The notes under the pieces were generated by a model, which was not told where the DNA came from, did no database searches, and saw only the letters and a program-made list of their open reading frames with translations. DNA of 51,039 bases from Candidatus Giovannonibacteria bacterium RIFCSPLOWO2_12_FULL_44_15 (GTDB lineage Bacteria > Patescibacteriota > Minisyncoccia > JACPKW01 > UBA11713). Shown one piece after another: positions 12,180-45,428 of the stretch (the first letter of the stretch is position 1; the number at the start of each line of letters is the position of its first letter). The DNA is taken from positions 9,539 to 60,577 of the forward strand of contig MFIQ01000001.1 in assembly GCA_001778905.1 (NCBI GenBank), in the 5' to 3' direction. The translations under genes and the position numbers were made by a program.

Positions 12180-14471
12180 ATGGAAACTTTTGTTGAAAAA
12201 AAGACAAGGACCCTCTCTCATATTGAACTTACTCAAATCAAAAAGCGCGATGGGACCGTTGTTCCGTTTGACTTGGCTCGGATCAAAAATGCGATTATGC
12301 GCGCTTTCGAATCAACAAAAGAAGGAGGAGAAGAAGAGGCGAGGCTGGTGGCGTTTCGCGTTTATGACATATTAAGGCAGATGAAATTGACCAGCCCTCA
12401 ATTTGTGCCCTCAGTCGAACAAATTCAGGATCTGGTAGAAAAAGAACTTATCTTGGATAAATTTGCAGTAACCGCTAAGTCGTACATTCTTTATCGCGAA
12501 AAACATGCCGAGATGCGGAGAGAAGCGGGACCGGTATCCGAGCGCCTGCGCGCCCTTGCCAAAGAGAGCAAAAAATATTTTAGAAATCCTCTCGCGGAAT
12601 TCATATATTACAGATCATACGCCAGATGGGTAGAGACAGAAGGAAGAAGGGAAACGTGGATTGAAACAGTGGATAGATATATGAGCTTTATGAAAGAAAA
12701 GTTGGCTGGCGCACTGACGGAGAACGAATATTCGGACGTCCGGGAGGCCATTTTGAAACACGAAGCTATGCCTTCTATGCGCTTACTCCAGTTCGCGGGG
12801 CTTGCCGCCAAGGCAACCAACGTTTGTGCCTATAATTGCTCCTTTATAGCCCCCAGATCCTTCCAGGATTTCGCCGAAATTATGTATATTTCTATGTGCG
12901 GAACGGGGGTAGGGTGGTCTGTTGAGAGCGAAAATATCCAGTCTTTGCCTCAAGTAAAGAGGCAAAGCGGCAAAAAGCTCTCGGCCTATGTCATTCCGGA
13001 CAGCAAGGAGGGGTGGGCGGACGCTTTCTCCTTCGGGCTCAAGACTTGGTTTGATGGAGAGGATGTAGAATTTGATTACTCAAAGTTGCGTCCCGCGGGC
13101 GCACGTTTAAAGACGATGGGAGGCAAGAGTTCGGGTCCCGAACCGCTGAGGAATCTTTTGGAATTTTCCAGAGAGCGAATTTTAAAAAGGCAGGGAAGGC
13201 GCCTTTCCAATATCGATGCCCACGATATCATCTGCAAGATAGGAGATTGTGTCGTTTCGGGCGGAGTCAGGAGAAGCGCCATGATTTCACTTTCGGATTT
13301 GGAAGACGAAGAGATTCGCGATTCGAAGAAAGGGCAATTTTATGTGAATGATCCTCAGCGCAGTTTAGCGAATAACTCCGCTGTCTATTGGCAGAGGCCG
13401 ACTACAAAAGAATTTTTGGACGAGTGGACAGCCTTGATTAAAAGCGGAAGCGGGGAGCGCGGAATTTTTAACCGCGGTGGGCTTGCAAAAACTCTTCCGG
13501 AGCGTAGGCTCGAACAATTTGGGGGCATCCATCCTTCTTGGGGAACAAACCCATGCGGAGAGATTGTCTTGCAATCGAAACAATTCTGCAATCTTACCGA
13601 AGTCGTCGCGAGGGAAAATGATACCGAGGAAACCCTTTTGAGAAAAGCAAGAATTGCGACGATACTCGGGACCTACCAATCTACGCTGACTTATTTTCCA
13701 TACCTTTCGAAAGAATGGCAGGAGAACTGCGAGCAAGAGAGGCTGCTCGGCGTATCGATTACTGGCCAATGGGATTCGCCTGCGGTGCGCGATGAAGCGG
13801 TTTTAAAGAAAATAAAGGATATGGTGATTAAAACCAATAAAGAATACGCGGCTAAATTCGGAGTCAGCCAATCGACCTGTACAACCTGCGTTAAGCCATC
13901 TGGAACCGTCTCCCAACTCGTAGACTGTTCCTCCGGCATGCATCCCAGGCACGCGCAATACTATGTCCGACGTGTCCGCATCTCCGCGACAGACTCCCTA
14001 TTTAAGATGCTAAAGGACCAGGGCGTGCCTTTTTATCCGGAAGTGGGGCAGACTATGGAGAGCGCTTCCACATTTGTCTTGGAATTTCCGATTAAAGCCC
14101 CCGAAGGCAAGATTTTCCGCGACAATCTTACGGCGATGGACCAATTAAAGCATTGGAAAATGGTCAAAGAAGGATACACGGAGCACAATCCGTCGGTGAC
14201 GGTTTCGGTAGGGGACGACGAATGGGTGGCCGTTGCCAACTGGCTTTACGAGAATTGGGATATCGTAGGCGGGCTTTCTTTCCTGCCCCGATTGAACCAC
14301 GTCTACCGCTTGGCTCCATATGAAGCAATAAAAAAAGAGGAATACGAGGAGCGCGCCAAGAAATTGGAACACATTGATTTTTCCAAAATCTATACGTACG
14401 AGATCGAAGACGAAACGGAAGTGAAAAAGGAACTCGCCTGCGTCGCGGGAGTTTGCGAAATAGAAATGTAA
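12180..14471 (+). CDS. nrdJ: Adenosylcobalamin-dependent (class II) ribonucleotide reductase with N-terminal ATP-cone
   Basis: It has an ATP-cone (IKKRDGTVVPFDLARIKNAI) and the class II active-site region WGTNPCGEIVLQSKQFCNLTEV. At 763 aa it is the size of the monomeric type. Confidence 0.9.
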   Translation: METFVEKKTRTLSHIELTQIKKRDGTVVPFDLARIKNAIMRAFESTKEGGEEEARLVAFRVYDILRQMKLTSPQFVPSVEQIQDLVEKELILDKFAVTAKSYILYREKHAEMRREAGPVSERLRALAKESKKYFRNPLAEFIYYRSYARWVETEGRRETWIETVDRYMSFMKEKLAGALTENEYSDVREAILKHEAMPSMRLLQFAGLAAKATNVCAYNCSFIAPRSFQDFAEIMYISMCGTGVGWSVESENIQSLPQVKRQSGKKLSAYVIPDSKEGWADAFSFGLKTWFDGEDVEFDYSKLRPAGARLKTMGGKSSGPEPLRNLLEFSRERILKRQGRRLSNIDAHDIICKIGDCVVSGGVRRSAMISLSDLEDEEIRDSKKGQFYVNDPQRSLANNSAVYWQRPTTKEFLDEWTALIKSGSGERGIFNRGGLAKTLPERRLEQFGGIHPSWGTNPCGEIVLQSKQFCNLTEVVARENDTEETLLRKARIATILGTYQSTLTYFPYLSKEWQENCEQERLLGVSITGQWDSPAVRDEAVLKKIKDMVIKTNKEYAAKFGVSQSTCTTCVKPSGTVSQLVDCSSGMHPRHAQYYVRRVRISATDSLFKMLKDQGVPFYPEVGQTMESASTFVLEFPIKAPEGKIFRDNLTAMDQLKHWKMVKEGYTEHNPSVTVSVGDDEWVAVANWLYENWDIVGGLSFLPRLNHVYRLAPYEAIKKEEYEERAKKLEHIDFSKIYTYEIEDETEVKKELACVAGVCEIEM

Positions 14472-15844: not shown

Positions 15845-16159
15845 TGGTGGAGATGGCGGGAGTTGAACCCGCGTCAGGAAAGCTTTTGAGGGATGGTTGA
15901 CAAGCTTAGGTGAAATCCTGAATTAACTCTCAGGAAAAAAGTTTTCTCGCTTATGACACCCGCGATCCCGTAGCGAGAATCAAGGACGGATGGCTCCGAC
16001 GCGAGGTCGGAGCGTTGCCATTAAGCTACTGCCAAGGCAGGCTCTCTGGTTCCAAATAAGTTTGCACTTATTATGTTCCCATGGGAGATATTTAGCTCCG
16101 CCATGGCGGAGCGCCTGAACATCATCTCAAAGTTCTTCCCCTCGAGGCCTATCATCCCC
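15845..16159 (-). ncRNA. ssrA: tmRNA (SsrA), one-piece
   Basis: The minus-strand 5' end GGGGAUG pairs with the 3' CAUCUCC-ACCA, including the G3:U alanine identity pair. The T-arm is GCGGGUUCAACUCCCGC. The resume codon GCA at 16065 opens the tag reading frame ANLFGTREPALAVA followed by UAA (16065..16021). It lies directly downstream of smpB. Confidence 0.9.
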
Positions 16160-39944: not shown

Positions 39945-40756
39945 TTGTAGACGGAAAGGCCATCGCCCAGAAAATAAAATCCGCGCTCAAAGAAGAAATA
40001 TCTAGGTCCAAACGGAAAATACGCTTGGCGGTTTTGAAAGTTGGGGACGATCCCGTGACGGCAAAGTATCTCGAAGTGAAAAAGAAATTTGCTGAGGCGA
40101 TAGGGGTGGACGTGCGTATTTACGAAGTACCAGTTGATATTTCAAACAATAAATTACGAGAGAGATTATCTGAGATAGTGCATATCGAAGAAAATGACGG
40201 GGTAATCGTTCAACTTCCAATGCCGGCAGGGATAAATATGCAGTATATTTTGGATGCGATAACTCTGGAAAAAGATCCGGATATGCTCTCATCGAAAAGT
40301 TGGGGAAAATTCTCGACGGGTAAATCCAAAATTTTTCCGCCGGTCGTTGGCGCCATTAAAACTATTTTTGACGAGAATAAAACAGAATTGAAGGGGAAAA
40401 ACGCGGTTGTTGTCGGCGCTGGACGGCTTGTCGGGAAACCCGTTGCAGCTTGGCTTATTGGGGAAGGGACTACCGTTTCGGTGATTGATGAAAATACCAA
40501 AAATCCCGAGGATTACACAAAAAAAGCGGATATAATAATTTCAGGAGTTGGCAAGCCCAGACTAATAAAAGCGGATATGGTTCGGGACGGAGTCGTCGCG
40601 ATAGATTGCGGGACTTCCGAATCGTCTGGCACTGTTTCTGGGGATATTGATCTGGATGTTTCCAAAAAAGCTTCCACATTCGCTCCGGTTCCGGGCGGTG
40701 TCGGCCCGATAACGATCGCGATGCTTTTTAGAAACTTAATCGAGCTTTCGAAATGA
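39941..40756 (+). CDS. folD: Bifunctional methylenetetrahydrofolate dehydrogenase/cyclohydrolase
   Basis: VGDDPVTAKYLEVKKK, VVGAGRLVGKPV and PVPGGVGPIT motifs are present. There is an ATGA overlap with glyA. Confidence 0.95.
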   Translation: MIVDGKAIAQKIKSALKEEISRSKRKIRLAVLKVGDDPVTAKYLEVKKKFAEAIGVDVRIYEVPVDISNNKLRERLSEIVHIEENDGVIVQLPMPAGINMQYILDAITLEKDPDMLSSKSWGKFSTGKSKIFPPVVGAIKTIFDENKTELKGKNAVVVGAGRLVGKPVAAWLIGEGTTVSVIDENTKNPEDYTKKADIIISGVGKPRLIKADMVRDGVVAIDCGTSESSGTVSGDIDLDVSKKASTFAPVPGGVGPITIAMLFRNLIELSK

Positions 40757-41235
40757 TTTACAGCAACCTCGTCATATTTTTCGGCAATTATCTGGCATGG
40801 ATTCTGGGCGCCGGCCTCGTTTTTTTTGTGATTTCGCAAAATAGAGAAAATTTCCGTGTTGCTATAGAAGCGCTTTTTGCCGGAATTCTTTCGCGTTTTG
40901 TTTTCGCGGAGATAATAAGATATTTTTATGATAAGCCGAGGCCGTTCGAAGTTGACGTTTCAATTCCCTTAATATTGCACGAAGTCGGGAAGTCGTTTCC
41001 ATCTGGGCACGCCGCATTCTTTTTTGCCGTTGCCACGACGCTATTTATTTATAACCGCAGATGGGGAATTGTATTTTTTATTGGGGCGATCGCGATGGGA
41101 ATCGGGCGCGTCTTGGCTCATATCCATTGGCCCATCGATATTTTAGGCGGGGCTTTGATAGGAATTGCGTCCGCCGCGATTATATGGAAAGTTATGCACA
41201 AACGGGGTTTGACGCGCAAAAGTGAAATAGCTTAG
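40753..41235 (+). CDS. PAP2-family membrane phosphatase (undecaprenyl-diphosphatase-like)
   Basis: The three acid-phosphatase motifs KPRPF, PSGHAA and GRVLAHIHWPIDIL are present within a membrane protein. Confidence 0.8.
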   Translation: MIYSNLVIFFGNYLAWILGAGLVFFVISQNRENFRVAIEALFAGILSRFVFAEIIRYFYDKPRPFEVDVSIPLILHEVGKSFPSGHAAFFFAVATTLFIYNRRWGIVFFIGAIAMGIGRVLAHIHWPIDILGGALIGIASAAIIWKVMHKRGLTRKSEIA

Positions 41236-41257: not shown

Positions 41258-41372
41258 CTGGTGCAGATTCTTGATTACGGGCGTAGGTTGGGGAAGTAGG
41301 TGCGAATCCTACACAGTGCCGCTACGGTAATCCGCCAATTAGGCGGAAAGTCCGATGGCCAACCCTGCACGA
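41258..41372 (+). promoter_or_regulatory. Cobalamin (B12) riboswitch aptamer, compact variant
   Basis: The outer helix pairs GGTGCAG (41260-41266) with CTGCAC (41365-41370). The conserved core is GGGAAGTAGGTGCGAATCCTACACAGTGCCGCTACGGTAA (41290-41330), with stems GCGTAG/CTACG and GTAGG/CCTAC. The hairpin TCCGCC-AATTA-GGCGGA sits at 41331-41347. A B12-box-like AAGTCCGATGGCCAACCCTGC is at 41348-41368. The downstream genes contain DUF4430. Confidence 0.75.
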
Positions 41373-41424
41373 ATAGCATGTAACCCTCGAGCAAGGTCTA
41401 AACTTTATCAGATTTATTTTTGGT

Positions 41425-41446
41425 ATCCGCCTCGGGGCGGATTTTT
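41425..41446 (+). terminator. Intrinsic terminator forming the riboswitch expression platform
   Basis: ATCCGCC (41425-41431), loop TCGG, GGCGGAT (41436-41442), then TTTTT. It ends 5 nt before the ATG at 41452. Its stem sequence is identical to the aptamer hairpin at 41331-41347. Confidence 0.7.
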
Positions 41447-41451
41447 GCGTT

Positions 41452-43038
41452 ATGAGTATAAAAATTAAAAATTATTTAGTTACCTCCGCACTTTTATCGG
41501 CTTTAATTTTATTGCCGTTATTTCCTGTTCGAGGGGATATTGATCAATCCCTAGTGTATCTAAAAACCAAAACTCAAAATCCATGGGTCACGATGGCTCT
41601 TTTTGCGGCTGGAGATAATTCTGACGTGGATTATCTCAAGTCGTTTATTGGCACTAACGCTTCTGATTATGAAGCCGCTATTTTAGCTTTAACGGCGGCA
41701 GGCAAAGACCCCAGATCTTTCCCGAACGAAAATTTAATCCAAAAACTTAAAAATTTTTACTCAAATGGACAAATCGGCGATCCGTCTTTACTGAACGATG
41801 ATATCTTTGGCTTGCTTGCCCTTTTGTCGGCCGTAGAGCCTATTAGCGATGAAGTGTTAAGCGGAGCAAGAGATTTTATTGTTAAAAATCAAAATGTGGA
41901 CGGGGGCTGGGCTTTCGCGCTGTCATCGGGAAGCGATACAAATATGACCGCGATGGCTATAATGGCTTTGCTCGAAGCCGGGGCCTCCAAGACAGACGCG
42001 AATATCTCCAAGGCGCTCATTTATCTCAAGAGCGCGCAGAATTCTGACGGAGGATTCCCTTATGATCCAAAAAGCCCCTTTGGGACAGATTCAGACGCTT
42101 CGTCAGACGCATGGGTGCTATCTGCCTTGAATAAACTTGGAGAAAATTTAAATGACTGGAAAAAAGACGGTCAAGGCTTATCCGAACATTTGTTAAGCCT
42201 TCAGACACCCGCCGGATATTTTGAATATCAAAAAGGCAGCGGTGAGGATGCTTTCAGCCCCATAACAACTTCTTATGCCGTAATTGCGCTTAGCAGGAAA
42301 TATTATCCGGTGTCAAAAAGTGCGCCTGCAGCGGATCCAGCAATAGGTTTTAAAATCGAAGGAAAAACTAAGGTATATTGCGAGGGCGAAGCGCAAGCTT
42401 CAGATGCTTTGGAATTAGTGAAAATAGCCGCTTCGAATTGCAATTTTACTTATAATATCAAAGATACTTCTTTCGGGCCGTATTTGGAACAGATTGGGGA
42501 TGATACGGTCTCTGGAACTGATGGCTGGCTCTATGCGGTGAACTTCATCTTGCCAAATATCGGCGCAGCGGATTACAAGCTAAAGAGCGGTGACTATGTT
42601 TTATGGCATTTTGGAGCATTTGATTGGCAGCCGCAAAGCACCTCAATAACTTTAAAAACAAAAGTTGGCGGCACTTCAGGAAGCCCAGGAGAAAATAATC
42701 CAAATCCGCCCGAGGACGAGATTTCGTTGAATTTATCAATCCCAGGAGCTGGGGGCAATTTGGATTTCGGAGATATACTGCCGGGTGATGCCAAAACTAA
42801 ATCCGTTAAGATTACAAATTCCGGGGATGTCCAGCTCTTTATTGAGGGGATCGTCACTGGGGATGGTATATTCAGAGATTATCTTAAGATAAACGATTTA
42901 TCTTGGCGGGATTTTGGGGCAAATCTTGGCGCTGGCGCGAGCGAAACCGAGAAGATTGGAATACAAATTCCAAGTTCGTATGCGAATCCCGGCGAGAAAG
43001 AAGGCCTCCTTATTTTTTGGGGAACATCCGGACAATGA
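41452..43038 (+). CDS. Secreted/anchored protein: alpha/alpha-toroid (prenyltransferase/terpene-cyclase-like repeats) + DUF4430 + Ig-like domain; putative extracellular cobalamin-binding protein
   Basis: It has a signal/anchor (YLVTSALLSALILLPLFPV). Toroid repeat motifs VDGGWAF, SDGGFPY and TPAGYFEY occupy aa about 30-285. A DUF4430-like segment, GWLYAVNFILPNIGAADYKLKSGDYVLWHFG, occupies aa about 297-390. The C-terminal beta-sandwich reads LDFGDILPGDAKTKSVKITNSGDV. It is the first gene after the B12 riboswitch. Confidence 0.6.
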   Translation: MSIKIKNYLVTSALLSALILLPLFPVRGDIDQSLVYLKTKTQNPWVTMALFAAGDNSDVDYLKSFIGTNASDYEAAILALTAAGKDPRSFPNENLIQKLKNFYSNGQIGDPSLLNDDIFGLLALLSAVEPISDEVLSGARDFIVKNQNVDGGWAFALSSGSDTNMTAMAIMALLEAGASKTDANISKALIYLKSAQNSDGGFPYDPKSPFGTDSDASSDAWVLSALNKLGENLNDWKKDGQGLSEHLLSLQTPAGYFEYQKGSGEDAFSPITTSYAVIALSRKYYPVSKSAPAADPAIGFKIEGKTKVYCEGEAQASDALELVKIAASNCNFTYNIKDTSFGPYLEQIGDDTVSGTDGWLYAVNFILPNIGAADYKLKSGDYVLWHFGAFDWQPQSTSITLKTKVGGTSGSPGENNPNPPEDEISLNLSIPGAGGNLDFGDILPGDAKTKSVKITNSGDVQLFIEGIVTGDGIFRDYLKINDLSWRDFGANLGAGASETEKIGIQIPSSYANPGEKEGLLIFWGTSGQ

Positions 43039-43559
43039 TAAGGCCCACTCTGGTTATTGCAATCTTTTTTCTTGCCGTATCAAGCGTATATGCAATCGGA
43101 TTATCCGTATCTCCGCCCGAATTAAACGCTTCCGGAACGATTTTTAAGGCGGCATCTGCGAAATTCACCGTTAAAAATTCTTCGAACGAAGTTGCGCTTT
43201 TTGAAATTTATCCGGATGACTTTACGGGCGAGATAAAAATTTCTCCCGAAAGTTTCGTTTTGAATCCGGGGGATAAAAAAGAAATTTTAGCCGAGGCCGG
43301 CTTTAAAAAATCTGGCAAATATAGAACCGATATTTCCGTTGTCGCAAAACCGATGACTGGATCTTCCTTGAAGGCGGCCGGGGGGTTAAAAATCCCGTTC
43401 ACTGCCGATATAGGCGAGGAGAGATCTACGCAGTTGGGGCTCCTTATGTCTTCTATAAACATGGAGACCTTGATAATCCTCTCTGCAATATTTGCGCTTG
43501 GAATTTTGGTTTTCGGTTTGAAATATGGTTTTCAAAAGTTCAAAAAAGCTAAAAACTAG
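43035..43559 (+). CDS. Secreted Ig-like (PapD/MSP-like pattern) protein with C-terminal TM anchor
   Basis: The start is taken at ATG 43035, overlapping the upstream stop (ATGA). It has a signal peptide (LVIAIFFLAVSSVYA), then FTVKNSSNEVALFEIYPDDF, and a C-terminal TM helix (LIILSAIFALGILVFGL). Confidence 0.55.
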   Translation: MIRPTLVIAIFFLAVSSVYAIGLSVSPPELNASGTIFKAASAKFTVKNSSNEVALFEIYPDDFTGEIKISPESFVLNPGDKKEILAEAGFKKSGKYRTDISVVAKPMTGSSLKAAGGLKIPFTADIGEERSTQLGLLMSSINMETLIILSAIFALGILVFGLKYGFQKFKKAKN

Positions 43560-43953
43560 TTTAGGAATCGGGGCAGTAGTTTTATTGTTAGTCGGTGGTG
43601 CGTATTTATATCCCCGCGTTTATTCGCCTACAGAAAATTTTGGCTCCGGGACAGCGTCTTTAATTGTCGATTTTGGCAATGGCCAGCGCGAGGTTTTTAC
43701 TGATGAGGAATTTAAGCAAGGCGAAAATTTGTTCGATTTCACGAAAAACGAACTTGAGCGAAAAAATATAAATTTCGAATTCCTGGAATACCCGTCTTTG
43801 GGGAAAATGGTGACCAAAATTGGGGACAAAAAAGGTAGCGCCGAGGATGGATATTGGCAGTATTGGGTAAATGGTGAATACGCATCTGTTGGAGCTTCGG
43901 ATTATTTGCTCAAACCCGGAGACAAAATCGAGTGGAAATTTTCTAAGTTGTAG
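43525..43953 (+). CDS. Membrane-anchored DUF4430 domain protein (putative B12-binding, transcobalamin beta-domain-like)
   Basis: An N-terminal anchor (LGIGAVVLLLVGGAYLY) is followed by GYWQYWVNGEYASVGASDYLLKPGDKIEWKF, the characteristic DUF4430 C-terminal pattern. Confidence 0.65.
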   Translation: MVFKSSKKLKTSLGIGAVVLLLVGGAYLYPRVYSPTENFGSGTASLIVDFGNGQREVFTDEEFKQGENLFDFTKNELERKNINFEFLEYPSLGKMVTKIGDKKGSAEDGYWQYWVNGEYASVGASDYLLKPGDKIEWKFSKL

Positions 43954-44028
43954 CTTGTGCAGTATTCTTAAATTAGTCCGAACGCATTTTTCCGAAAAAA
44001 TCCCCCCGCGAAAATTCGGAAAGGCGGC

Positions 44029-44051
44029 GGCTTGTACTGAGCGAAGTCGAA
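44029..44051 (-). repeat. Copy C of a CACTTCGACnnnGCTCAGTnCAAGC motif
   Basis: The minus strand reads CACTTCGACTTCGCTCAGTACAAGCC. It is inverted relative to copy B at 44800-44823, and the two bracket the 44101-44775 gene. Confidence 0.35.
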
Positions 44052-44100
44052 GTGAGCCGTGCCGCTGACAATTTCAAGTTTTTCTTTGGCGGCAAATTCT

Positions 44101-44775
44101 CTAGGGTAGAGCACATTGGTAATTAGTCGTTTGCCATTCACACTTAAAAGGGAATTCACCGCTTGAATATGAAATACATTGTTCTTGAGACAATAACTTG
44201 ATACAGTCCTGCTCAACCTTAGACGAAGGCCTGGCTCCGGTACACACTACGCGACAATTATATCCGACTTGACTATCTGTTACATAAAAAAAGTGTTTGT
44301 TGCTCTCTCCATTCGTATTCATCACATAGACTTCATACCGACCAGCAGTAACCGGAATGTTTCTTATCTCATAGCAGGGACTGCCGCCTGGATGACACTC
44401 GTCTTGTTCGGCAGGAACAGCAAAAGATAACGTAACGCCGTCTGCAGAATTAAGATACCCAGAATAGTCTGTGCCGAATCTTACAACATTTTGAGTAGCA
44501 GTAAAACCAGAGCCTTTTATTGTCACCGACGTACCAATGGTACTAGAAGATGGAGAAAGATTATAAATTTGAGGACTCACTTTGTTTTTCTTCTGTGATG
44601 TCGTAGTTGTTGATGTTTGGGTCGGTGTTGTAGAGGTGGATATCGGCGGTGTTGGGGTAGAAGTTGGTACTGGTGGGGTTGTTGTTCGCTGGCTCAAAAC
44701 AAAATACCCAGCTATCCCAGCAATAACAACAATTCCTATGATAACTACAATATTTATAAATCCCTTTTGATTCAT
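44101..44775 (-). CDS. Cell-surface protein: N-terminal anchor, Thr/Pro-rich linker, IPT/TIG-like Ig domain, Cys-containing C-terminal domain
   Basis: MNQKGFINIVVIIGIVVIAGIAGYFVL is followed by TTPPVPTSTPTPPISTSTTPTQTSTTTT. Next comes NLSPSSSTIGTSVTIKGSGFTATQNVVRFG (IPT/TIG pattern). Confidence 0.6.
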   Translation of the reverse strand: MNQKGFINIVVIIGIVVIAGIAGYFVLSQRTTTPPVPTSTPTPPISTSTTPTQTSTTTTSQKKNKVSPQIYNLSPSSSTIGTSVTIKGSGFTATQNVVRFGTDYSGYLNSADGVTLSFAVPAEQDECHPGGSPCYEIRNIPVTAGRYEVYVMNTNGESNKHFFYVTDSQVGYNCRVVCTGARPSSKVEQDCIKLLSQEQCISYSSGEFPFKCEWQTTNYQCALP

Positions 44776-44799
44776 ATGATTAAAAAATTTTCTTCCCCC

Positions 44800-44823
44800 A
44801 CTTCGACCCTGCTCAGTGCAAGC
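44800..44823 (+). repeat. Copy B of the CACTTCGACnnnGCTCAGTnCAAGC motif
   Basis: The plus strand reads CACTTCGACCCTGCTCAGTGCAAGC, matching 21 of 25 positions with copy C. A related copy lies inside ileS at 21625-21647 (TTCGACTCCGCTCAGGGCAAGCC). Confidence 0.35.
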
Positions 44824-44834
44824 AAAATTAAAAT

Positions 44835-44948
44835 ATGGTTCCCTCCAGAGGCGGGCAGGCGAGCCGACCCGCTTGCCAGTCGCTATCGCTCTAGGCGATT
44901 GCGGGCCGATGTTTTTCTCTAGGTTCTAGCGATGCGACTTGGAACCAT
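44835..44948 (-). other. Highly structured region between tRNA-Leu and the surface-protein gene (candidate 5' leader or small RNA)
   Basis: The outer 8-bp stem pairs ATGGTTCC (44835-44842) with GGAACCAT (44941-44948). The inner 12-bp stem pairs AGTCGC-T-ATCGCT (44878-44890) with AGCGATGCGACT (44928-44939). There is a GCGGG/CCCGC helix and a CTCTAGG direct repeat (44889-44895, 44917-44923). A possible extended -10 (TGTTATAAT on the minus strand, 44947-44955) overlaps the outer stem. Confidence 0.3.
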
Positions 44949-44968
44949 TATAACACACTTTTCCAACG

Positions 44969-45055
44969 TGGTGCCGCGGGAGGGGGTCGAACCCTCATGA
45001 GCTTGCGCCCGCAGGATTTTGAGTCCTGTGCGTCTGCCAATTCCGCCACCGCGGC
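44969..45055 (-). tRNA. tRNA-Leu (anticodon CAA), CCA encoded
   Basis: The minus strand reads GCCGCGGTGGCGGAATTGGCAGACGCACAGGACTCAAAATCCTGCGGGCGCAAGCTCATGAGGGTTCGACCCCCTCCCGCGGCACCA. It has a 7-bp acceptor stem, anticodon loop CU-CAA-AA, a long variable arm and a T-loop GGTTCGA. Confidence 0.93.
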
Positions 45056-45057
45056 AA

Positions 45058-45294
45058 TTACTTTAAATTATTTAAAAATTCTCTACCTTGCCCACTTTTT
45101 AAGAATTTTTCTCTTTTTCTTGCTTCTTTATAATCTGTATAATTTTCTACCAAGATTAATTCATAGGGAGTATTTGGCTTTGTAGACTTATTATACCCTA
45201 GATTATGACGTCTAATTCGCTCGTTGACGTTGTTTGTTATACCTACGTATCTGAAGGATTTATTTATACTTTCTATAACGTAAACATAGATCAT
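45058..45294 (-). CDS. Small stand-alone GIY-YIG nuclease-domain protein (78 aa)
   Basis: IYVYVIES...FRYVGITNNVNERIRRHN.G...YELILVENYTDYKEARKREKFLK carries the GIY, YIG(YVG), R and E core residues. Its stop codon lies 2 nt from the tRNA-Leu 5' end. Confidence 0.85.
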   Translation of the reverse strand: MIYVYVIESINKSFRYVGITNNVNERIRRHNLGYNKSTKPNTPYELILVENYTDYKEARKREKFLKSGQGREFLNNLK

Positions 45295-45322
45295 ATACTG
45301 CGCGGTCGCCGGAGGCGACTAA

Positions 45323-45363
45323 ATCTGCCATCCGCTTTATCCGCCTGTGGCGGGCACCGCGGC
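45323..45363 (-). other. Partial tRNA-Leu 5'-half-like sequence interrupted by a 19-nt hairpin
   Basis: The minus strand reads GCCGCGGTG [CCCGCCACAGGCGGATAAA] GCGGATGGCAGAT. The tRNA-Leu 5' end reads GCCGCGGTG GCGGAATTGGCAGAC. That gives 9/9 plus 12 identical positions with a 2-nt gap. It lies 29 nt upstream of the GIY-YIG ATG. Confidence 0.35.
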
Positions 45364-45428
45364 ATGTATAGAATTTATTAAGTTTTTCGGTTATTGTCAA
45401 TTTAATAAATTTCATATATTCTCTAACT

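Follow-up and report, generated by a model that had tools for sequence, protein, structure and literature searches.

Patescibacteria have minimal genomes and obtain most of their cofactors from other cells. The locus described here raises the question of how one of these bacteria might obtain vitamin B12. It lies in a 51,039-nt window (the whole stretch of DNA that was analysed) of contig MFIQ01000001.1 from Candidatus Giovannonibacteria bacterium RIFCSPLOWO2_12_FULL_44_15, a groundwater bacterium with a tiny genome. A first-pass annotation of the window had described a riboswitch-controlled operon of three secreted proteins, the first of which was likened to transcobalamin (TC) and intrinsic factor (IF), in an organism that needs B12 and with no transporter gene beside the operon. 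The claim of a B12 requirement was based on NrdJ, which is encoded outside the operon and is identified by Pfam and HMM matches as a class II, B12-dependent ribonucleotide reductase. Its Pfam domains (ATP-cone, RNR_Alpha, Ribonuc_red_lgC, and RNR-II_ins_dom, the last at 31.8 bits against a cut-off of 27) agree with that reading, and an HMM built from the NrdJ genes that adjoin the operon in relatives matches the window NrdJ at 1.6e-155. We noticed no other type of ribonucleotide reductase in the window, and DNA synthesis may therefore depend on scavenged B12. NrdJ is the likely client enzyme of the operon.

RESULTS

A translationally coupled operon preceded by a cobalamin riboswitch

The main features of the locus are as follows.

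12180-14471, + strand: NrdJ, class II B12-dependent ribonucleotide reductase
41264-41406, + strand: cobalamin (AdoCbl-type) riboswitch aptamer (Rfam RF01482, lineage model R1, and covariation)
41425-41447, + strand: expression platform hairpin (terminator scan and sequence)
41452-43038, + strand: g1, 528 aa, transcobalamin-like, predicted to be secreted
43035-43559, + strand: g2, 174 aa, PapD/MSP/ASH-like Ig protein with a predicted type-I membrane anchor (signal peptide; beta-sandwich, aa 23-127; C-terminal TM helix, ~aa 143-165; AF2 pLDDT 82)
43525-43953, + strand: g3, 142 aa, stand-alone SLBB/DUF4430 protein, transcobalamin beta-like (N-terminal TM anchor, ~aa 13-29)

The three genes are translationally coupled and are preceded by the riboswitch and its hairpin: the g1 stop codon and the g2 start codon overlap in the sequence ATGA, and g3 starts 35 nt inside the end of g2. 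The default Rfam scan missed the riboswitch because its score against the AdoCbl model RF01482 (41269-41408, 45.7 bits, E = 2.7e-7) is below the gathering score of 50, and its detection in the window required the permissive Rfam mode together with a lineage-specific covariance model, R1. With R1, the element scored 121 bits and was both the top match and the sole one in the window. Of 80 related Patescibacteria loci, 74 had exactly one R1 match. In every case it was on the same strand as the g1 homolog and, by hit-table coordinates, 5' of it, with nothing in between in most loci. Among 17 related loci, 10 had a homologous element that passed the Rfam gathering score for RF00174, RF01482, or RF01689 (clan CL00101). 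In an alignment of 75 aptamer sequences, 94.2% of cells were paired, compared with at most 46% in slid controls, and both sides had changed in 16 of 20 pairs (404 such cells). At the level of sequence, the lineage covariance model and the covariation settle the status of the window element as a cobalamin riboswitch, though the RF01482 score itself is subthreshold. The description of the locus as a three-gene operon under such a riboswitch is supported. The ~75 divergent aptamers, many of them below threshold in Rfam, could improve riboswitch models for the phylum.

The end of the aptamer lies 46 nt from the ATG of g1. This interval holds a GC-rich hairpin of 7 bp (ATCCGCC-TCGG-GGCGGAT) followed by a T-run, and the whole element ends 4 nt 5' of the ATG. 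The sole SD-like stretch is GGGGCGGA, the 3' arm of the hairpin, and the hairpin is therefore likely to act as a combined terminator and sequester of the ribosome binding site. Of 71 related loci, 50 have an analogous hairpin with a T-run between aptamer and start codon; there it typically ends 8 to 12 nt 5' of the ATG, and its 3' arm is rich in purines. The arms of P6 are identical to the terminator arms, and we considered an antiterminator formed through them. We dropped this model, as the identity, judged by eye, is not conserved in relatives and is thus probably due to chance. A search by eye for complementarity in an L5-L13 kissing loop gave no clear covariation.

g1 combines a cyclase-like toroid with a transcobalamin-type beta-domain

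The predicted parts of g1 are listed below.

41452-41535, + strand: signal peptide (aa 1 to ~28; hydrophobic N terminus)
41539-42306, + strand: alpha/alpha toroid (aa 30-285; Pfam, AF2, and Foldseek)
42334-42636, + strand: SLBB/DUF4430 beta-domain (aa 295-395; Pfam, AF2, and profile)
42727-43035, + strand: ASH/PapD-like Ig domain (aa 426-528; AF2 and profile), with a low-confidence linker before it

Pfam matches to SQHop_cyclase_C (1.7e-8), Prenyltrans (1.2e-6), and DUF4430 (PF14478; aa 337-388, 2.1e-8, 34.9 bits against a cut-off of 23.8), together with an AF2 model (pLDDT 86) that is helical over aa 31-280 and then forms a beta-domain (aa 297-387) and a beta-sandwich (aa 426-526), place the toroid, the DUF4430 module, and the Ig-like domain where the first-pass annotation had put them. 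It had also compared the order of an alpha/alpha barrel followed by a small beta domain to that of TC, IF, and haptocorrin (HC), and the model is in agreement: the best 15 Foldseek matches in the PDB were all TC, IF, or HC (E = 2.5e-14 to 2e-11), with 400 to 430 aligned columns that span both the alpha and the beta domains. The TM-scores against TC were 0.3 to 0.46 with an rmsd of ~23 A, so the g1 model either orients its domains to each other in a way unlike TC or does not fix their orientation; the packing of the domains is likewise uncertain because the pTM of the model is 0.60.

By sequence, g1 matches TC through the beta-domain only. Transcobalamin was not found in a single-sequence PDB search with g1, and a profile of the beta-domain (A6) was required; nine of the ten PDB matches of this profile were TC2, IF, or HC beta-domains (E = 1.1e-5 to ~6e-3). 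The kinship between DUF4430 and the beta domain of these proteins, which the first-pass annotation had suggested, is thus borne out, and by this profile evidence the g1 beta-domain is homologous to those of TC, IF, and HC. The toroid grouped with squalene-hopene-cyclase and prenyltransferase repeats in both single-sequence and profile searches, and Cobalamin_bind (PF01122) was not among the Pfam matches listed for g1. By sequence the toroid is nearer to repeats of the squalene-hopene-cyclase type than to the TC alpha-domain, and the likeness of g1 to TC is one of architecture and of the beta-domain. Residues that are invariant or nearly so in the g1 family include N115, D116, D117, F119, D162, T163, N164, W359, and Y361. 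A profile of the full-length g1 family (A1) matched CEP192 through the C-terminal domain (profile positions 429-525, 3.4e-4). Proteins of the g1 type would be soluble bacterial relatives of human transcobalamin and suited to expression.

g2 and g3 are predicted to be membrane-anchored partners

The middle gene had been described as encoding an Ig-like protein with a C-terminal anchor, and its AF2 model, its Foldseek matches, and its predicted topology all fit that description. The matches were to HYDIN, CEP192, VAP-MSP, and Caf1M (E = 5e-9 to 5e-6); the 50 listed included no B12 binder, and Pfam gave only weak Ig_CFAP65/HYDIN matches. g2 follows g1 in 40 of the 59 related loci that have enough downstream sequence. 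We rejected the possibility that g2 is a paralog of the C-terminal Ig domain of g1, as BLASTP gave no significant match and the hhalign probability was 15%; the two have a fold class in common and nothing more.

g3 matches Pfam DUF4430 at 5.3e-15 (56.1 bits against a cut-off of 23.8) and shares 34% identity with the g1 beta-domain (E = 6e-12). Its UniRef name is "Transcobalamin-like C-terminal domain-containing protein," and a single-sequence PDB search gave a weak direct match to the haptocorrin beta-domain (E = 0.75). By these sequence comparisons, g3 is paralogous to the g1 beta-domain, of which it forms a second, anchored copy, as expected from its earlier description as a membrane-anchored, stand-alone DUF4430 protein. 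Signal peptide and anchor predictions for g1, g2, and g3 are also consistent with the view that all three products are extracytoplasmic.

A CbrT-like gene usually follows g3 in relatives and was not found in the Giovannonibacteria loci

The first-pass annotation had stressed the lack of a transporter gene. Around this operon the statement holds. The window contains no ABC ATPase, ECF, or BtuCDF gene and no open reading frame in which a Walker A motif and an ABC signature occur together, and no translocator gene was present in the ~65 kb around the operon (the window, 10 kb upstream, and ~3.7 kb beyond the far end) or in the inspected flanks of three other Giovannonibacteria assemblies. For the family as a whole it does not hold. 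In relatives that carry g3, the next gene usually encodes a DUF6580 (PF20221) membrane protein: such a gene is present in 16 of 21 loci with g3 and in 4 of the 38 that lack g3 (odds ratio 27, p = 5.6e-7), for an overall count of 20 of the 59 related loci with enough downstream sequence. This protein is homologous over its full length to the S-component CbrT (6fnp; E = 2.2e-6). An HMM of the DUF6580 neighbors of relatives found no match in the six frames of the window or in the Giovannonibacteria loci L081 to L086, and a profile search showed no DUF6580 protein named for Giovannonibacteria among the 120 matches listed of ~5900. Four Giovannonibacteria assemblies have kept the riboswitch-g1-g2-g3 arrangement without DUF6580. 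The absence of a transporter is thus a local feature of Giovannonibacteria and not a property of the whole system. Transporters of the S-component type are generally thought to operate without binding proteins. The linkage between g3 and DUF6580 leads to the hypothesis that a tethered beta-domain may be a substrate-delivery partner of such a transporter.

Two other candidates for transport genes were rejected. ABC genes located 3' of g2 in some loci belong to ABC-2/GldG-type or binding-protein-dependent systems and not to ECF modules, and in the closest relative the gene that comes next after g3 (172 aa) encodes a soluble HExxH-type protein and not a divergent S-component. The commonest form of the system in the phylum is riboswitch-g1-g2 alone. 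Genes within 6 kb of the operon in relatives encode NrdJ (8 loci), CobA/BtuR (5 loci), and B12-binding radical-SAM proteins (4 loci).

DISCUSSION

A model for B12-repressed corrinoid capture

The riboswitch, the TC-type architecture, and the beta-domain homology make a role in B12 capture the best reading of this locus, and we consider that the operon is probably a B12-repressed module for corrinoid capture on the cell surface. We found no report in the literature of any bacterial member of the family shown to bind B12; we infer B12 binding by g1 and g3, tethering by g2, the order of hand-off, and that the switch is of the OFF type. With little AdoCbl in the cell, the aptamer would be empty and the hairpin unformed, and the three coupled genes would be transcribed and translated. 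With enough AdoCbl, ligand binding to the aptamer would favor the hairpin and T-run, leading to termination and burying the SD-like 3' arm. Once exported, g1 would hold a corrinoid with its alpha/alpha toroid on one side and its beta-grasp (SLBB) domain on the other, as in transcobalamin. The membrane-anchored, PapD-like g2 probably keeps g1 at the surface, and the corrinoid is probably handed on to a membrane translocator by g3, whose copy of the beta-domain is tethered to the membrane. For most g3-bearing relatives, the neighboring CbrT-like DUF6580 protein would fill the translocator role; the Giovannonibacteria translocator may be encoded elsewhere, or something else may take its place. 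The imported B12 would then serve NrdJ. The operon is a compact and well-delimited candidate for B12 scavenging in Patescibacteria.

The Giovannonibacteria loci also allow bolder interpretations. The trio could be a complete acquisition device that needs no translocator of the CbrT/ECF or BtuCDF type and might, for example, feed corrinoid into an unrecognised import route, which we regard as distinctly improbable. Direct cell-cell contact with a host is typical of Patescibacteria episymbionts, and such a route might use this contact or the single-pass anchors of g2 and g3. If true, the translocator-free trio would represent a new way for B12 to cross a membrane. An unlikely alternative is that g1, g2, and g3 hoard corrinoids as a surface reservoir or for competitive sequestration, with entry by an unrelated and unlinked route. 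This would explain why the trio is kept without a linked translocator in four Giovannonibacteria assemblies, it is in keeping with the prevalence of the riboswitch-g1-g2 form, and Bacteroides offers a precedent in the extracellular B12 reservoir formed by BtuG/BtuJ lipoproteins. A reservoir would nevertheless still require an importer in order to be useful, the tight linkage of g3 to a CbrT-like gene in other lineages argues for delivery, and riboswitch repression under replete B12 suits an economy of uptake.

Two further alternatives concern the ligand and the activity of g1. A different tetrapyrrole as the ligand, for example heme or an incomplete corrinoid, as was proposed for the split alpha/beta proteins of Lactobacillus sakei, seems to us very unlikely. 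Deletion of lsa1836-1840 in that organism, the sole knockout of a related system, cut heme uptake 5- to 8-fold, a reviewer of Burroughs et al. (2007; PMC1796856) cautioned that the ligands of SLBB domains may be diverse, and ECF-CbrT also carries cobinamide. However, the L. sakei study examined the locus only as a whole and its heme docking was done in silico, we saw no heme-related gene near the Patescibacteria operons, and the AdoCbl-type riboswitch in 74 of 80 loci and the neighboring NrdJ, CobA/BtuR, and B12-radical-SAM genes point to corrinoids. Least credible, with only a slight chance of being correct, is the idea that g1 is an extracytoplasmic isoprenoid enzyme, similar to a terpene cyclase or prenyltransferase, that acts on envelope lipids together with an upstream PAP2 phosphatase. 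The best sequence matches of g1 are indeed squalene-hopene cyclase (SHC) and drimenyl-diphosphate synthase, and the PAP2 gene is the immediate upstream neighbor of the operon in all four Giovannonibacteria assemblies. The SHC similarity, however, reflects one repeat unit of ~60 aa aligned with five QW repeats and is not an alignment of the active site. The DxDD acid of SHC (D374-V-D376-D377-T) is opposite a near-invariant Asn of the g1 family (D162-T-N164-x-T166) in a weak local alignment of only 1.6 bits. In addition, the PAP2 gene sits 5' of the riboswitch and is not conserved beside g1 in other lineages, and an isoprenoid enzyme gives no rationale for fusion to a TC-type beta-domain or for regulation by B12.

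Comparison with known systems

Our preferred reading, corrinoid capture on the cell surface, places the operon among several characterised or predicted systems. TC, IF, and HC (PDB 2bb5, 2pmv, and 4kki) provide the best structural matches of g1 and share with it an alpha6/alpha6 toroid followed by a beta-domain, but the identity is 15 to 17%, g1 adds a C-terminal Ig domain, and its toroid, unlike theirs, has the QW-type DGGW/DGGF repeats typical of terpenoid cyclases. A bacterial donor has been proposed for animal transcobalamin. The Bacteroides proteins BtuG, BtuH, and BtuJ1/J2 are likewise riboswitch-regulated extracellular B12 binders that supply a transporter. They differ from the trio in the folds named for them (DUF4465 in BtuJ1/J2) and in being outer-membrane lipoproteins that work with the TonB-dependent BtuB. 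The earlier suggestion that Bacteroides surface binders contain DUF4430 gained no support: DUF4430 and transcobalamin are both absent from the BtuH and BtuJ1/J2 papers, and the literature found to mention DUF4430 included no paper on B12 in Bacteroides. The ECF-like operon of L. sakei also co-encodes secreted toroid and beta-domain proteins, whose suggested role is to capture a tetrapyrrole and supply it to a membrane transporter. In contrast to g1, the alpha and beta parts are separate proteins there, a full ECF module is part of the operon, and the phenotype is heme uptake; the word "riboswitch" is absent from the lsa1836-1840 paper.

CbrT was reportedly first predicted by Rodionov et al. 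in 2009. ECF-CbrT of Lactobacillus delbrueckii (6fnp) is a characterised B12 transporter (Santos et al. 2018, eLife), and its S-component is homologous to the DUF6580 protein of the relatives. Its gene context, with NrdJ and an adenosyltransferase, resembles that of the Patescibacteria loci. Unlike ECF-CbrT, the window has neither CbrT/DUF6580 nor EcfA/A'/T genes.

The closest precedent is the work of Burroughs, Balaji, Iyer, and Aravind (2007, Biol Direct 2:4; PMC1796856), who described bacterial toroid-SLBB fusions with Ig domains and signal peptides, found operons with a second paralogous SLBB protein, and predicted a role in B12 scavenging. The architecture, the paralogous beta-domain protein, and the idea of B12 scavenging were therefore already published in 2007. 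Their set and ours are alike in the toroid with a TC-type beta-grasp domain, the signal peptides, the Ig-fold domains, and the second SLBB protein. Theirs is drawn mainly from Firmicutes and archaea, with operons that generally include ECF genes of the CbiO/CbiQ type, whereas the present operon is from a patescibacterium and has no linked ECF ATPase or T gene. In the present system, moreover, the PapD-like anchored g2 is a core partner, and the riboswitch, which PMC1796856 does not mention, is nearly universal. What is new here is the linkage to a riboswitch, the g2 protein, the connection to DUF6580, and the spread of the system in Patescibacteria.

RESULTS

An operon of three overlapping genes. 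An ORF search placed three same-strand ORFs at 41452-43953, as the first-pass annotation had described, and public gene calls on identical DNA give the same limits:

41452-43038, plus strand, g1, ORF of 528 aa (transcobalamin-like)
43035-43559, plus strand, g2, ORF of 174 aa (Ig-like)
43525-43953, plus strand, g3, ORF of 142 aa (stand-alone DUF4430)

The host belongs to Candidatus Giovannonibacteria (Patescibacteria/CPR). The encoded proteins are identical to NCBI OGF69953-55 and related entries, and the base composition of the operon is not unusual. The stop codon of g1 overlaps the start of g2 (ATGA) and the ATG of g3 lies inside the 3' end of g2, by 35 nt, so that g1, g2 and g3 are, on the layout of the ORFs, predicted to be translationally coupled.

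The g1 product begins with a hydrophobic, signal-peptide-type N terminus that has no lipobox cysteine, and it matches the terpenoid-cyclase and prenyltransferase toroid families of Pfam as well as DUF4430. In its confident AlphaFold model (mean pLDDT 86), a helical toroid spans aa 31-280 and an alpha/beta domain aa 297-387; a disordered linker then leads to a beta-sandwich at aa 426-526. When this model was compared with the PDB by Foldseek, hits 1 to 15 were transcobalamin (TC), intrinsic factor (IF) and haptocorrin (HC), with E values of 2.5e-14 to 2e-11 and alignments of 400 to 430 columns, which therefore cover both domains. The next-ranked matches, squalene-hopene cyclases (SHC) and prenyltransferase beta-subunits, extend over ~300 columns and cover the toroid only. 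TM-scores against TC are modest (0.3 to 0.46) and the rmsd is ~23 A, so the likeness seen in the model is one of architecture and not of relative domain pose. A profile of the beta-domain, built from g1 segments and g3-type proteins and searched against the whole PDB, found the beta-domains of TC2, IF and HC in 9 of its 10 hits (E 1.1e-5 to 6e-3). By sequence, the toroid is nearest to SHC, through one repeat unit of ~60 aa that matches five QW repeats of that enzyme; the acid of the SHC DxDD motif is apparently Asn in the g1 family, at a place where the local alignment is weak. The C-terminal domain of g1 matches CEP192 (3.4e-4) and shares its broad fold class with g2.

The g2 model (pLDDT 82) is an Ig sandwich of the PapD/MSP/ASH type, flanked by a signal peptide and a C-terminal TM helix. 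The 50 structural matches listed include HYDIN, CEP192, VAP and pilus chaperones but no B12 binder. Sequence comparison gave no demonstrable paralogy between g2 and the C-terminal Ig domain of g1. The g3 domain, which is preceded by an N-terminal TM segment, shares 34% identity with the g1 beta-domain (E 6e-12) and is, as judged from sequence, clearly its paralog.

A cobalamin riboswitch in the g1 leader. An Rfam scan of the window at default settings returned only a tRNA and a tmRNA gene (15845-16159, minus strand, 76.9 bits) and no riboswitch. In permissive mode, the g1 leader (41269-41408) matched the AdoCbl riboswitch RF01482 with 45.7 bits (E 2.7e-7), just missing the gathering score of 50. 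We compared it with 80 loci that carry g1 relatives. Record titles or close protein similarity place nearly all of them in Patescibacteria; a few are titled Gammaproteobacteria or Chloroflexia. Rfam scans of 17 of these loci gave a riboswitch of clan CL00101 (Cobalamin, AdoCbl or AdoCbl-II) above the curated threshold in 10, each time a short way upstream of the g1 relative and in the same orientation. A lineage covariance model built on 19 leaders of such loci had exactly one match in each of 74 of the 80 loci. Every match shares the strand of g1 and lies 5' of the g1 homolog, immediately so in most loci, and the 928 kb searched held none elsewhere; of the six loci that lack a match, two or more begin at a contig edge. 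The window leader is the best match of this model (121 bits) and the only one in the window. Across 75 aptamer sequences, 94% of pair cells hold standard pairs (at most 46% in slid controls), and 16 of 20 pairs have changed on both sides, in 404 cells. The leader element is thus a true cobalamin riboswitch that belongs to a divergent lineage, and its initial identification stands. The aptamer is closed by a conserved CTCGAGCAAGG hairpin (41384-41396).

Between the aptamer and the g1 ATG, a terminator scan and the sequence itself reveal a 7-bp GC-rich hairpin (41425-41442) followed by TTTTT. Its 3' arm, GGGGCGGA, is the sole purine-rich stretch at Shine-Dalgarno distance from the ATG. A comparable hairpin and T-run occur in 50 of 71 relatives, where the 3' arm resembles AGGAGA or GGGAG and the hairpin usually ends 8 to 12 nt 5' of the start codon. 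From the purine-rich arm and this conservation, the expression platform looks like a combined terminator and ribosome-binding-site sequester. By analogy with the usual working of cobalamin riboswitches on uptake genes, B12 would be expected to turn expression off. The arms of the P6 hairpin (TCCGCC...GGCGGA, 41330-41346) are identical to those of the terminator hairpin (41426-41441), which would permit an alternative long-range pairing (an antiterminator); the identity may be chance, because by eye relatives do not conserve it. In many relatives (e.g., loci L027, L054, L056 and L021), the loop of the terminator/sequester hairpin carries CTCGAA or CTCGAG, which suggests that there the tertiary-contact hairpin and the platform have merged, while in the window they are separate.

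A CbrT-like partner in relatives. The conserved core of the loci is riboswitch-g1-g2, with g2 after g1 in 40 of the 59 loci that have enough downstream sequence. A polytopic membrane protein of ~185 aa accompanies g3, usually right after it, in 16 of 21 loci, and it occurs in 4 of the 38 loci that lack g3 (odds ratio 27; Fisher p 5.6e-7). The protein after g3 is Pfam DUF6580 (E 1e-47 to 1e-50), which has a weak link to ECF S-components and is labeled "DUF6580 family putative transport protein" by NCBI. The single PDB match of the DUF6580 profile, over its full length, is 6fnp chain A (E 2.2e-6), the S-component CbrT of the characterized ECF-CbrT vitamin B12 transporter. ABC genes that follow g2 in some loci were rejected as ECF modules; they belong to ABC-2/GldG-type or binding-protein-dependent systems.

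Other recurrent neighbors are NrdJ (8 loci), B12-binding radical-SAM enzymes (4 loci) and the corrinoid adenosyltransferase CobA/BtuR (5 loci, 4 paired with NrdJ). In L011, L019, L028 and L047, NrdJ adjoins CobA/BtuR, and both are at most a few kb from the operon. The order on one strand of L011, g1-g2-g3-DUF6580-NrdJ-CobA, would amount to a near-complete cassette for capture, import, activation and use.

At 50% identity and E <=1e-30 the family comprises 364 clusters, a moderately large number, and its members vary. In L053 and L058, g2 and g3 are fused (~330 aa) and followed by DUF6580. L030, L042 and L052 have longer g1 homologs, and some homologs reach 700 to 890 aa, having apparently absorbed extra domains. 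L079, titled Chloroflexia, combines a riboswitch match with a toroid protein of 388 aa and could be a real case from outside Patescibacteria. Some titles (Chloroflexia for L079, Gammaproteobacteria or Saccharibacteria for several others) seem at odds with Patescibacteria-like gene content, perhaps because the bins received their taxonomic labels automatically.

The Giovannonibacteria locus. No DUF6580 gene lies in the window, and none of its ORFs combines a Walker A motif with an ABC signature; the polytopic proteins that it encodes are ComEC, a Trp/Tyr-type permease, an MFS protein and an AI-2E family protein. Longer contigs with the same genes, which extend the view by 10 kb at one end and ~3.7 kb at the other, still show no transporter. 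The order PAP2, riboswitch-g1-g2-g3, variable segment, ParB is kept in three other Giovannonibacteria assemblies (g2 52 to 65% identical to that of the window), again with no DUF6580 near the operon. The claim that the operon is without a transporter gene thus holds locally and is stable in Giovannonibacteria, but it fails for the family as a whole, where the CbrT-like DUF6580 partner exists.

The PAP2-family phosphatase gene (40753-41235) is a conserved upstream neighbor of the riboswitch in the four Giovannonibacteria assemblies and not in other lineages; its adjacency probably reflects synteny, not function. The segment between g3 and parB (43954-45428) varies between strains and species. 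In the window it contains:

44101-44775, minus strand, secreted T/P-rich ORF of 224 aa
44969-45055, minus strand, tRNA-Leu(CAA)
45058-45294, minus strand, GIY-YIG ORF of 78 aa

Relatives have instead an HExxH-type ORF or a DUF3800 gene with an Exo_endo_phos gene, and in one contig with identical g1-g3 neither the 224-aa gene nor the GIY-YIG gene is called.

DISCUSSION

The operon and its riboswitch are real, and their reading as a B12 capture system is largely right. The proposed presence of DUF4430 in Bacteroides surface B12 binders found no support: two papers on these binders, which cover BtuH and the DUF4465 proteins BtuJ1/J2, mention neither DUF4430 nor transcobalamin. Our searches found no published report of a bacterial toroid-DUF4430 protein binding B12, no literature on cobalamin riboswitches in Patescibacteria and no paper that mentions DUF6580. 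The system is of interest mainly because it is readily testable.

Related systems have been described before. Burroughs, Balaji, Iyer and Aravind defined the SLBB superfamily in 2007 (PMC1796856) and reported bacterial fusions of an alpha/alpha toroid with a transcobalamin-type beta-grasp domain, fusions that often also carry Ig-fold domains, signal peptides and anchors. Their operons also encode a further SLBB paralog and CbiO/CbiQ-type genes, and the hosts lack B12 synthesis. The paper proposes a role in B12 scavenging and a bacterial source for animal transcobalamin; riboswitches are not mentioned (PMC1796856). The domain is covered by Pfam DUF4430, and g3 already bears the UniRef name "Transcobalamin-like C-terminal domain-containing protein." The one functional study of a related system that we found concerns lsa1836-1840 of L. 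sakei, which encodes separate alpha-like and beta-like secreted proteins with a full ECF module and whose deletion reduced heme uptake. The operon is a rediscovery of a class that was predicted in silico and is still uncharacterized. New here are the finding that riboswitch control is near-universal in Patescibacteria, the recognition of g2 as a PapD-like anchored partner, the lineage-specific absence of DUF6580 beside the Giovannonibacteria operon, and the statistical coupling of the tethered g3 to a CbrT-like DUF6580 membrane protein.
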